Shown one piece after another: positions 27,897 to 30,404 of a stretch of DNA of 33,233 nucleotides; within the stretch, counting starts at the first letter, position 1; each line of letters begins with the position of its first letter. This DNA comes from Planctomycetota bacterium (lineage in GTDB: Bacteria > Planctomycetota > Phycisphaerae > UBA1845): assembly GCA_022563615.1 (NCBI GenBank), contig JADFMZ010000001.1, positions 1 to 33,233 of the forward strand, read 5' to 3'. The notes beneath the pieces were generated by a model. The model was not told where the DNA came from. It searched no databases and was given only the letters and a program-made list of their open reading frames with translations. Made by a program: the position numbers and the translations under genes.

Positions 27897-28640
27897 ATGA
27901 ACCTTATCGACGCCAGCCTGTCAGCTATCGCCCTTGCGACGGCGTTACTGCATACGAGTTCCTTCGCCGAGCCGCCGGGTGCCGGCGCATCGAAGGAAGA
28001 GCCATCGGCGCGAAAGCAAGTCGCCTTCCACGTCATCGGCCTGATGAAAACCCAGTCGGGCGCGACGTGACTGGGGTGACCGAACAAGGTCACGGAGTCC
28101 CTGGAAGGGACGCAGGCAACCAAGAGCATCACCTGGGATTACGCCAGGGATCGCGTGACGATTGGATACGATCCGAAGCGGATTTCGCCGGAGAAGCTCG
28201 CCAAGCTCATCACCGATCTGGGCTTCAAGGTAGAGGAGGTTGAGCCGCCGGGCGCAGGCACGGGCGCGGGTGCGAAGAAACACCAGCGCGTCAAAGCACC
28301 GATGCCGGACGACGCGCCGAAGTTTTTTCGCGAGGCCTTCGACAAGGCGCGTCGAGCGAATCATCCTATCGTGATTGATTTCTGGGCAAAGTGGTGCCCG
28401 CCTTGCCTCCAACTGAAGGAAGTCACCTTCCGCGATCCGAAAGTCGCCGGGCTCCTCGAAAAAGTTCAACTGATCTACGTCGATCTGGACCAATACCCGG
28501 CGCTCGGGAAGGCATACGGCGTCCAGGCCATACCGGATCTGTTTCTGGTGGACCGCCAGGGATGGATCGTGGACCGGCTTCAAGACTTCGAGCCGCCGGA
28601 TGCGTTCTTCGTTCGCCTTCGAAGACTGCTTGCGGAGTAA
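27897..28640 (+). CDS. Candidate selenoprotein: secreted HMA-like domain with a UxxU motif fused to a thioredoxin-fold domain (two in-frame TGA codons)
   Basis: ORF-track ORFs 27783..28070 and 28155..28640 share one frame. That frame is open from 27897 to TAA 28638-28640 except for TGA 28068-28070 and TGA 28077-28079. The translation has a signal-like N-terminus (MNLIDASLSAIALATALLHTSSFA). The next segment is KQVAFHVIGLMKTQSGAT-U-LG-U-PNKVTESLEGTQATKSITWDYARDRVTIGYDPKRISPEKLAKLITDLGFKVEEV, a beta-alpha-beta-beta-alpha-beta HMA-like pattern. A Gly/Ala/Pro linker and a thioredoxin fold follow (IVIDFWAKWCPPCLQLK, AIPDLFLVD). AGGAG lies about 11 nt upstream of ATG 27897. The alternative start GTG 28155 would fall inside a beta strand of the HMA-like domain. 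Confidence 0.55.
28076..28111 (+). promoter_or_regulatory. Candidate SECIS-like hairpins immediately downstream of / overlapping the two TGA codons
   Basis: Hairpin 1 is gtgacc (28076-28081), loop gaacaa, ggtcac (28088-28093). It contains the second TGA in its 5-prime arm. Hairpin 2 is gtccc (28097-28101), loop tggaa, gggac (28107-28111). Its G-containing loop starts about 23 nt after the second TGA. Neither has been tested against a SECIS model. Confidence 0.3.
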
Positions 28641-28789: not shown

Positions 28790-29011
28790 CTAAAGGTGGC
28801 TAACGAAATCCTCTATGGTCAATCCGGCATCACGAATCAGGCTTCTAAGTATTCCCCTGTCGAGTTCCTTGTGAAGGGGCACACACAAGTGCAATGGAAA
28901 CCCCTCTTTCTTCAATACTACATGACTACCGCGCTGCCTTTTTTTCTCAAATCCGGCGCGCCCAAACGCCTTTATCGCCTCAGCGCCGGATATTCGCGGA
29001 AGCTCAGGCAT
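28790..29011 (-). CDS. hicA: Type II toxin HicA family (mRNA interferase)
   Basis: 73 aa. The sequence ISGAEAIKAFGRAGFEKKRQRGSHVVLKKEG...LHKELDRGILRSLIRDAGL matches the HicA/YcfA dsRBD-like fold, including the conserved GSH. Confidence 0.88.
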   Translation of the reverse strand: MPELPRISGAEAIKAFGRAGFEKKRQRGSHVVLKKEGFPLHLCVPLHKELDRGILRSLIRDAGLTIEDFVSHL

Positions 29012-29327
29012 TCACAATAACCTGGTACGTTTCCTCGTCGGGGCGCTTGTTCGGTGCCTGCCTCCAGGGGATGGGCATTTTCTCTTCAACGTATGTCTCT
29101 AGAGTTAATTGTAACGCTTCGGCCACATCCTTTACCGCAGACGGGAAATCGGCTCCTTGGCCTACGACGCCGGGAAGCGTTGCGACATAAGCAACGTATC
29201 CGCTGTCTTCACCACGAGAGACGCGAATCTCGCAGCTATACCCGAGGGCCTCTGGCGGATTGGCGGTTCTCCAGCTTGGTTCCACCGGAATAATCGTTGC
29301 TCCGACGGTTTCTCGCGTCTCAATCAT
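29004..29327 (-). CDS. hicB: HicB-family antitoxin N-terminal-domain protein (no DNA-binding domain)
   Basis: 107 aa. The sequence YSCEIRVSRGEDSGYVAYVATLPGVVGQGADFPSAVKDVAEALQLTLETYVEEKMPIP is the HicB/UPF0150 partial RNase H-like fold. It overlaps hicA by 8 nt. AAGGAGG precedes its ATG, inside the 3-prime end of the upstream gene. Confidence 0.82.
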   Translation of the reverse strand: MIETRETVGATIIPVEPSWRTANPPEALGYSCEIRVSRGEDSGYVAYVATLPGVVGQGADFPSAVKDVAEALQLTLETYVEEKMPIPWRQAPNKRPDEETYQVIVNA

Positions 29328-29757
29328 TTGAACCCTCCTTACTCGGCAATTTGGCCACTTGGATGCGAACCGACCCGATCATCGTTTCATCGGTCCAACA
29401 CTCAAAGCTGTAAATACCCGCTCTTGGAAGAGGAAACGGTGGTATCTGGACGACGATATCCAGCGGCGTTAGCGGATCATTGCTTTGAATTCGCATCGGC
29501 TTGCTTTCCATCAGGATTTGGTTGTCGTGTAGGCTGACAAATCGCAATTGCAACACGACTTCACCGATAACGTCCACCAGCAGAATAAACGCAAAGGCTG
29601 AAAAGCTGGTTACACTTGGGAACCCAGAGCTAAAGATTTTGCTGAAAGTTCCGCAAATAATCCGCTTACCCGTCTGGTGATCGGTGTAAATGCGGTCAGC
29701 GAGAACTAGCGCTTGAAGAACCGGCAAGGAGTTTGATTTCTTCACGTCGCAACCCAA
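29320..29757 (-). CDS. Uncharacterised 145-aa protein translationally coupled to hicB
   Basis: The ORF overlaps the hicB start by 8 nt, and the hicB Shine-Dalgarno lies within its last codons. The sequence appears beta-rich (ALVLADRIYTDHQTGKRIICGTFSKIF, EVVLQLRFVSL, GIYSFECWTDETMIGSVRIQV). I recognise no catalytic motif. The start is TTG 29757 or GTG 29745. Confidence 0.65.
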   Translation of the reverse strand: MGCDVKKSNSLPVLQALVLADRIYTDHQTGKRIICGTFSKIFSSGFPSVTSFSAFAFILLVDVIGEVVLQLRFVSLHDNQILMESKPMRIQSNDPLTPLDIVVQIPPFPLPRAGIYSFECWTDETMIGSVRIQVAKLPSKEGSND

Positions 29758-29779
29758 TCTTGCCGTTTATGAAGAACCA

Positions 29780-30016
29780 TCACTCAGTCTTCGACTCTAA
29801 GCTCTTCCCATGGACGCTCTTTCTGATCCACTCCGGTGTAATCGTGGTGGCCTTTCGCTTTGCGCTTCTTAGGAGTGTGTTTCGCGCCCACGACGAAGTA
29901 CTCAGACCACTCGATCTGGCTGCAACGTCCAAGAGACGGCGATCTTCGCGTGTCATTCTGATCCTAAGCACGCTCGTCTTGCGCTCAACATCGGCTTTCC
30001 TTGGCCTGCCCATCAC
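29780..30016 (-). CDS. Ribbon-helix-helix (CopG/MobC/DUF1778-like) DNA-binding protein
   Basis: 78 aa. KTSVLRIRMTREDRRLLDVAARSSGLSTSSWARNTLLRSA fits the beta-strand plus two-helix RHH pattern. It is the first gene of the minus-strand cassette. The start is GTG 30016 or ATG 30013. Confidence 0.75.
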   Translation of the reverse strand: MMGRPRKADVERKTSVLRIRMTREDRRLLDVAARSSGLSTSSWARNTLLRSAKRKATTITPEWIRKSVHGKSLESKTE

Positions 30017-30019
30017 GCT

Positions 30020-30083
30020 TTATTGTAGCAACAAATTTCCCCAATAACAAGCCCGCCAGGCAGAGTTGTTGTGGCTACAATAA
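30020..30083. promoter_or_regulatory. Imperfect inverted repeat directly upstream of the RHH gene (candidate operator or leader hairpin)
   Basis: ttattgtagcaacaa (30020-30034) and ttgttgtggctacaataa (30066-30083) are inverted copies apart from a 2-3 nt insertion. About 30 nt separate them, and the repeat ends 4 nt from the RHH start codon. Confidence 0.35.
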
Positions 30084-30404
30084 CAGCCATGAAAAAACTA
30101 GGCGAAAACAAGCAAACGATGACCCTGAGCGGGTTGGATGAAGGAAACAACATCAAGGCCATGGCGACTCCGTAGCCTACCGATGGGTGCACCCGTGGCA
30201 CCGCCAGAAATGCACGCTTCGCTTGCGGACGTTCTGGCCGGCTTAAGACCGGTTGGCCTGCGGGAAAATATTTTCCGATACGCCGGCCAAGAACCACCTC
30301 TCCCCAAAAAACCGTTTCCCCTATTCAAAGTCTTGGCAGAGACTGCATAATGTGCATAAGACCAAGCTAGGGTTCTTTTCGGTTCGTTCTTTGAGGTATG
30401 TGCT

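Follow-up and report, generated by a model that had tools for sequence, protein, structure and literature searches.

The operon described here lies on the minus strand of a 33,233-nt stretch of DNA from a Planctomycetota bacterium of the Phycisphaerae (lineage UBA1845; GenBank assembly GCA_022563615.1, contig JADFMZ010000001.1, positions 1 to 33,233), the whole of which we call the window. The source assembly is a fragmented metagenome-assembled genome (MAG) that is 81% complete. Between positions 28790 and 30016, four tightly packed open reading frames (ORFs) encode, in order of transcription, a small ribbon-helix-helix (RHH) protein, a 145-residue protein of the DUF6941 family, a short HicB antitoxin and a HicA toxin (Table 1). 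The first-pass annotation of the window had described this same arrangement, and its coordinates were reproduced, as were the 22-nt gap between the RHH and DUF6941 genes and the two 8-nt overlaps that follow (ATGATTGA where DUF6941 runs into hicB, and ATGCCTGA where hicB runs into hicA). Two of the start codons can be read in more than one way. The RHH frame opens with GTG at 30016, with an alternative ATG at 30013 that aligns with the start of all homologues, and the 145-residue frame opens with TTG, with an alternative GTG at 29745 that is the start used by its closest homologue, P0001. The G+C content of the cassette is 0.47-0.55, against approximately 0.60 in its flanks. Comparison of this locus with its relatives at the sequence level indicates that the four genes are one conserved mobile unit, and we give about an even chance to the fuller reading in which they make up a single mobile operon, a Class 2 HicBA module in multi-component form, with an RHH repressor acting in trans and with DUF6941 as a partner of HicB.

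Table 1. Coordinates of the cassette genes and of the predicted promoter and operator-like elements in the window.
Feature	Coordinates	Strand	Remarks
Distal operator-like 12-mer, TTGTGGCTACAA (+ strand reading)	30069..30080		Near-palindrome TTGT-N4-ACAA; exact match to TTGTNGCNACAA
-35 hexamer TTGTTA, predicted operon promoter	30045..30050	-	From promoter scan; G(C/T)TTG core kept in 8 loci
Proximal operator-like 12-mer, TTGTAGCAACAA	30023..30034		Overlaps spacer and -10 box
-10 hexamer TACAAT	30022..30027	-	Stops 5-8 nt short of the start codon of the RHH gene
RHH gene, 77-78 residues	29780..30016	-	Predicted operon autorepressor; PF21983, 31.1 bits
DUF6941 gene, 145 residues, predicted all-beta sandwich	29320..29757	-	Accessory component; PF22091, 58.4 bits
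hicB, 107 residues, antitoxin core (partial RNase H fold)	29004..29327	-	Without DNA-binding domain
HicB N-terminal extension, approximately residues 1-31, with W19	29235..29327	-	Candidate partner-binding segment, from alignment of 30 HicBs
hicA, 73 residues, toxin of RNA interferase family	28790..29011	-	PF07927, 62 bits; G-S-H motif intact

In this family HicA is an RNA-cleaving toxin, which the core of HicB neutralises by binding it directly. The Pfam scores given in Table 1 for HicA, DUF6941 and the RHH protein are each to be set against a cut-off of 27 bits, and the DUF6941 match is full length (profile positions 1-125). HicA also matches PHROG 353 'toxin' (1.4e-9), and it carries the motif RGSHVVL, of which the SH is invariant in 31/31 cassette HicAs. 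As a single sequence the window HicB falls below the Pfam cut-off (PF15919, HicB_lk_antitox, 20.9 against 27); it matches PHROG 497 'HicB-like' at 6.5e-10, and a profile built from 30 cassette HicBs finds the solved HicB structures 6g1c (1.9e-10) and 6g1n/6g26, 6u0i and 6hpb (up to 2.5e-8). An AlphaFold2 (AF2) model of the HicB from a homologous locus, L067, has the beta-beta-beta-alpha-beta order that fits a partial RNase H fold. Cassette HicBs are 100-117 residues long and none has a DNA-binding domain, with no helix-turn-helix, RHH or Phd domain in the window protein. The first-pass description of this HicB as consisting only of the N-terminal domain was therefore right as to the missing DNA-binding domain, but overlooked an extension of about 30 residues that precedes the canonical core; alignment with the solved HicBs begins only at profile position 32. 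One tryptophan of this extension, W19 in window numbering, is kept in at least 90% of the cassette HicBs, and the extension is predicted to be disordered (predicted local distance difference test score, pLDDT, of 46-54 in the L067 homologue). The most common class of HicB is short and has no DNA-binding domain (Gerdes 2024, mBio 15:e03293-23, PMC10865869), and the lack of such a domain is therefore not in itself unusual. Class 2 hicBA modules of this kind are bicistronic, with HicBs of 63-103 codons; with Class 1 they outnumber all other classes, none of their members has been studied by experiment, and how they are regulated is posed as an open question (PMC10865869). The same genome contains a plain Class 2 hicBA module on contig C336 (L106: 1471-1901, minus strand), in which a gene for a 70-residue HicB overlaps that for a 75-residue HicA. 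This HicB has no extension and no DUF6941 or RHH gene lies nearby, and the module served as an internal control.

The product of the first gene, the RHH protein, has its Pfam match in the NikA-like RHH family PF21983. An NCBIfam scan gave weak RHH matches only, and comparison with solved structures returned AtaR/TacA-type RHH antitoxins (E 0.03) and NikA (E 0.08), both marginal. The protein is 51-77% identical to ten homologues, with 23 invariant positions in the 11 sequences, and its C-terminal tail beyond the fold is also conserved, T57 and W62 being invariant. Mean pairwise differences in this frame are 16, 9 and 33 of 55 at codon positions 1, 2 and 3, a pattern from which we conclude that the frame is coding and under purifying selection. 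A word-based search of 5.8 billion proteins found four relatives, all of the cassette type; such searches, which gave four near relatives for the RHH and five for HicB, are blind to more distant contexts. In the surveyed loci the RHH gene is known only at the head of such cassettes. A NikA-like relaxosome protein would be expected in a plasmid-mobilisation context (relaxase, oriT); there were no mobilisation genes in the window or the related loci and no match in the plasmid collection.

When the 200 nt before the RHH start were aligned across eight four-gene loci, two conserved blocks only were seen: GTTATTGTAGCYACAA and, 45-46 nt downstream and 5-8 nt before the start codon, TTTTGTNGCTACANTAA. 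Both blocks hold the near-palindrome TTGTNGCNACAA, whose only two exact matches in the 33 kb window are the sites listed in Table 1, 46 nt apart; the spacing is 45-46 nt in the related loci L004, L006 and L042. Among 105 fetched loci the exact pattern occurs in four-gene loci only, and in 0/96 others, including all loci with DUF6941, HicB and HicA alone (triads) and all with DUF6941 by itself (solos). The inverted repeat that had been placed at 30020-30083 is thus corroborated by the conservation of its two 12-mers. A promoter scan of the minus strand (30050-30022) found TTGTTA-17 nt-TACAAT with a TG extension (9/12 matches), and from this position it follows that the proximal palindrome overlaps the spacer and -10 box while the distal one sits just upstream of the -35 box. 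Palindromes placed in this way about a promoter are classical for toxin-antitoxin operons that repress themselves. In 8/8 four-gene loci the start codon follows the -10 box at a conserved short distance, which suggests that the mRNA is leaderless or nearly so, its transcription start being deduced from the predicted promoter. The RHH gene is always paired with the two conserved palindromes bracketing or overlapping a sigma-70-like promoter that is itself conserved, and this co-occurrence is what a trans-acting autorepressor would need. The suggestion that a stand-alone RHH protein supplies in trans the DNA-binding function missing from HicB is consistent with palindromes that are restricted to RHH-bearing loci, and it is probable that an RHH dimer binds these palindromes and represses the operon in trans. 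It would thus take the part that in classical HicB falls to a C-terminal HTH or RHH domain, and in epsilon-zeta to omega.

Recurrent linkage of the 145-residue protein and the RHH to hicAB had been set as a test of the first-pass proposal, and such linkage was found, in 4/4 lookups and in 31 cassettes in total. A large protein collection contains 63 homologues of the 145-residue protein (48-93% identity). For the four that lie on long contigs (57-74% identity), the gene is in every case followed by a HicB-like gene (109-117 residues) and hicA (67-74 residues) with the same overlaps, and tblastn and phmmer searches found an RHH gene directly upstream in all four (60-69% identity). The flanks of these loci differ from one another (SAICAR synthase/GH10; IS1-like/ACT; IS1-like/VWA; PDH-E1/radical SAM); those of the window cassette are thioredoxin and ClC. 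We note that public gene callers missed the RHH gene in the L004-L011 contigs (for example at L004: 3760-3993), and annotation probably tends to miss small RHH genes that head such cassettes. Three more four-gene loci, L042 (Phycisphaerae), L043 (Phycisphaera) and L044 (Phycisphaerales), came from a scan in which each GTDB species was represented by one genome; counts from genome samples, here and below, apply to the searched genomes. The four-gene order is therefore kept in eight loci that are independent of one another and differ in their flanks, all from Phycisphaerae-type Planctomycetota, and because of this conservation the arrangement cannot be attributed to chance. Related loci are titled Phycisphaerae, Phycisphaerales and other Planctomycetota. 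The DUF6941-HicB-HicA triad without an RHH detectable by hidden Markov model (HMM) was found in 23 loci, from Planctomycetia, Pirellulales, Thermoguttaceae and others. These 8 four-gene and 23 three-gene loci bear out the view that the 145-residue protein is an additional component of a three- or four-part system. Two adjacent independent modules were considered as an explanation of the locus and dropped after the neighbourhood and HMM surveys.

The history of the cassette was examined with a maximum-likelihood tree of 99 DUF6941 proteins, which is rough, with few columns and many rows partly covered, and in which the two branches cited here are starred. The four-gene loci form one clade (100/99) nested in a subfamily that mixes triads, solos and cut contigs, and a deep branch (100/98) splits this triad-bearing subfamily from the 'general' DUF6941 proteins, every one of them encoded by a solo gene. 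Because 23 loci carry the triad without an RHH, the DUF6941-HicB-HicA triad is the core of the system, to which the RHH and its operator were added once, later, in one lineage. It also follows that the RHH cannot explain the presence of DUF6941. This bears on the idea that the cassette is two pairs side by side, an RHH antitoxin with DUF6941 as its toxin and then an ordinary hicBA, an idea that would suit both the weak resemblance of the RHH to TacA/AtaR, RelB and VapB antitoxin models and its C-terminal tail, which is like that of toxin-binding antitoxins. However, the RHH never occurs with a solo DUF6941, DUF6941 is linked to hicBA in 23 loci without it, and most DUF6941 genes have no antitoxin-like neighbour, which is implausible for a toxin; we regard a double pair as highly improbable. 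Across 30 cassettes, DUF6941 and HicB diverge in step (r = 0.75 between their pairwise divergences), at least as closely as HicB and HicA do (r = 0.57). None of 2000 permutations (0/2000) reached these values, and both correlations hold with the four-gene clade removed, so that the three genes have been inherited as one unit. Such co-divergence is hard to reconcile with DUF6941 being a passenger of unrelated housekeeping function, behind which a regulator-less hicBA was inserted and whose promoter it now uses, and so is the fact that HicBs linked to DUF6941 share an extension absent from unlinked ones and that the cassette is carried whole from one site to another, unrelated one, with its translational coupling conserved. 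Solo DUF6941 genes are widespread without conserved neighbours, two such paralogues are present in this genome, and solos are interspersed with triads in the tree, all as a passenger would predict, but on balance we find this explanation decidedly improbable.

As to mobility, the cassette was not found by tblastn against phages and plasmids or in a scan of IMG/VR. The ClC gene beside the window cassette was traced in 20 relatives (57-68% identity), where synteny is not conserved and neither an empty site nor a cassette was found. In several related loci (L006/L007: 2809-3726; L008: 2952-3695; L009: 991-1770) a gene for a protein of 247-305 residues lies divergently beside the RHH end and gives a faint signal of an IS1-type DDE transposase; this IS1-like gene may be the vehicle for cassette mobility. 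A Pirellulales MAG has, at L054: 2902-3895, a DUF6941 gene followed by an overlapping 154-residue HicB-like ORF with a long C-terminal tail, and no HicA was detected at this locus, which may be a decayed or remodelled triad.

The role of DUF6941 is less clear-cut than that of the RHH. An AF2 model built from 36 sequences is an all-beta sandwich of ten strands (pLDDT 91.4; predicted template modelling score, pTM, 0.83). The profile of cassette HicBs gave about 600 HicB-like matches in 173 of 401 Planctomycetota genomes, and among the 30 best, which were inspected, all three HicBs with the extension are preceded by DUF6941 and none of the 27 core-only ones is (0/27). Co-occurrence of extension and DUF6941 is without exception in our data. 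By analogy with toxin-antitoxin-chaperone (TAC) systems, DUF6941 may act on the HicB extension and so control the folding, stability or availability of HicB, an idea that we hold to be quite possible, with the chances somewhat against it. In the reading that we favour for the cassette as a whole, HicA would be the RNA-cleaving toxin and the HicB core would neutralise it by direct binding, as is established for the family to which both proteins are homologous. The RHH, encoded first, would bind as dimers to the two TTGTNGCNACAA palindromes that flank or overlap the -35 and -10 boxes, repressing the whole, probably leaderless, transcript, as its strict co-occurrence with these conserved sites suggests, and would thereby supply in trans the autoregulation that the cassette HicB cannot perform. 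DUF6941 would be a beta-sandwich binding module, whose translation directly precedes that of HicB and is coupled to it, and that acts on the disordered tryptophan-containing extension in a manner analogous to a SecB-like chaperone and the ChAD of TAC. HicA would then be set free when DUF6941 is lost or titrated away. Of the steps in this scheme, that of DUF6941 is the least certain.

Several observations weigh against this role for DUF6941. A fold search of the PDB returned generic sandwiches only, namely UNC119, PDE6-delta (PDE6D), RhoGDI and the Wzt carbohydrate-binding domain, at template modelling (TM) scores of 0.35-0.5 and root-mean-square deviations of 6-9 A, and a likeness so generic allows no functional assignment. 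Neither Pfam, NCBIfam nor the PDB fold search showed similarity of DUF6941 to SecB or a known chaperone. DUF6941 is present in 213/401 (53%) sampled Planctomycetota genomes and 61/99 tree loci are solo, and the protein plainly also serves outside toxin-antitoxin modules. The correlation of HicB extension with DUF6941 sits in one HicB clade, the one that defines the profile; the three extended HicBs are therefore a property of that clade rather than three independent events. The extension is at the N-terminus and the DUF6941 gene is upstream, unlike the arrangement in TAC. Finally, hicB at L067 continues the reading frame of DUF6941 beyond its stop codon, so that read-through would yield a natural fusion, and an AF2 model of this fusion, made with few paired rows and without predicted aligned error, has a pTM of 0.59 and no confident interface. 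Both domains have pLDDT above 90, the linker and extension 46-54, and the model, a weak test, leans if anything against a rigid complex. Beyond close kin there is no recurrent neighbour of the general solo DUF6941 genes, and with the family being so common, the linkage to hicBA is therefore the property of one subfamily. The two solo paralogues of this genome, C424 (L001: 1351-1800) and C296 (L003: 1-321), are 23-28% identical to the cassette copy and have unrelated neighbours, one of them lying at a contig end.

Among predicted viral structures, DUF6941 matches uncharacterised phage proteins of the same size at TM scores of 0.72-0.82; two BFVD entries, A0A2P1JU14 (Anoxybacillus phage A403) and A0A2H4JCJ7, have the DUF6941 fold in 134-138 residues at 15-17% identity. 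There was no NCBIfam or meaningful PHROG match to the family. The phage-like fold, together with the weak resemblance to the ligand-pocket sandwiches UNC119 and PDE6D, would fit a sensor or trigger, in which HicB is released or destabilised once DUF6941 has bound a protein of an invading phage or else a ligand, whether a small one or a lipid, the whole being an abortive-infection-type module kept repressed by the RHH. HicA modules have been proposed to act mainly in phage defence (PMC10865869), and the cassette is mobile and patchy (3/401 genomes), as such a module might be. In contrast, PADLOC gave no match for any of the four cassette proteins, the annotated loci have no defence-island neighbours, the cassette was not found in the phage, plasmid or IMG/VR collections, and sensing alone leaves the N-terminal extension of HicB unexplained, so that we consider a sensor unlikely. 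Alternatively, DUF6941 could be a bridge that binds both the RHH tail and the HicB extension, rebuilding non-covalently a HicB that both binds DNA and neutralises, and coupling operator occupancy to the toxin:antitoxin ratio. The RHH tail (T57, W62) and the HicB extension (W19) are both short conserved tryptophan-containing segments outside folded cores, and the gene order RHH-DUF6941-HicB puts the bridge between its partners. However, the 23 triads have DUF6941 and an extended HicB with neither RHH nor operator motif, such that bridging to the RHH is not the ancestral or general role of DUF6941, and no structural prediction supports it; a bridge seems to us improbable. Returning to DUF6941 as a partner of HicB, a bolder form of this proposal, which we put forward tentatively and think rather doubtful, is that DUF6941 represents a new, non-SecB class of antitoxin-dedicated accessory protein that would gate toxin release via the HicB extension. 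With an omega-like RHH and its two-site operator captured in one Phycisphaerae lineage, this would make a four-component type II operon in which regulation, neutralisation and gating reside on separate polypeptides.

The approximately 320 nt from the distal operator to the divergent ClC channel gene (30085-30404) have a lower G+C content and no convincing gene, and a promoter-like site on the plus strand at 30324-30351 points toward the ClC gene. Directly downstream of hicA, on the opposite strand (27897-28640), is an HMA-like/thioredoxin fusion with two in-frame TGA codons.

If these proposals are correct, the cassette would be a natural and compact answer, for one lineage, to the question of how HicBs without a DNA-binding domain are regulated. 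The detached RHH repressor, with an operator and promoter of about 60 bp, is directly testable. For DUF6941, found in about half of the sampled Planctomycetota genomes, the cassette context gives a falsifiable prediction of a partner, the N-terminal extension of HicB, and should DUF6941 turn out to work as a chaperone or gate specific to the antitoxin, the TAC principle would no longer be confined to SecB. No mention of DUF6941 was found in a literature search, and a search on three-component or tripartite HicA systems found no description of the triad or the four-gene form. A hicBA with its own RHH repressor and DUF6941 is thus a multi-part HicA layout not found in the literature searched.

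The distal half of the operon resembles Class 2 hicBA in having hicB followed by hicA, overlapping genes, a small HicB without a DNA-binding domain, and a HicA of about 70 residues with the catalytic histidine. The HicA domain, G-S-H motif, HicB fold and small overlapping HicB of that class are all present, and only the bicistronic two-component layout is not, since here these genes are half of a four-gene operon that also comprises the HicB extension, the RHH, DUF6941 and an operator-like promoter. None of the 14 classes described by Gerdes has an RHH or DUF6941 partner (PMC10865869). The other parallel is with TAC, exemplified by HigB1-HigA1-SecB(TA) of M. tuberculosis and HicAB-SecB(TA) of Methylomonas methanica (Bordes et al. 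2016, PMC5105189), which shows that HicAB-type TACs exist and in which tryptophan residues of a variable, disordered antitoxin extension contribute to chaperone binding (PMC5105189). Our cassettes have in common with TAC a type II pair, of HicAB type in some TACs, a dedicated third protein, a variable disordered extension with tryptophan, and the existence of solo as well as dedicated versions of the third protein. Neither structural hallmark of TAC, a SecB-like chaperone and a C-terminal ChAD extension, is present: a DUF6941 sandwich stands in the place of SecB, HicB is extended at its N-terminus and not at its C-terminus, and the gene for the accessory protein precedes the pair, where that of TAC follows it. 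As the extension is N-terminal, yet disordered and tryptophan-containing like ChAD, the resemblance to TAC is functional only.

The RHH protein itself has an N-terminal RHH motif in common with the NikA/MobA and TacA/AtaR types (PF21983; PDB 2ba3, 6ajm), but the match is marginal, there is neither a relaxase/oriT context nor a GNAT toxin nearby, and the C-terminal tail is unrelated. A precedent for its position is offered by omega-epsilon-zeta and paaR-paaA-parE, in which a separate small repressor heads the operon, the omega repressor being an RHH protein, and the antitoxin has no DNA-binding domain. The toxin and antitoxin families of these systems differ from those of the cassette, and they have three components, with no DUF6941-like fourth. 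What the cassette appears to have in common with omega-epsilon-zeta is a first gene that encodes a separate RHH protein and has repeated operator-like sites in its promoter.

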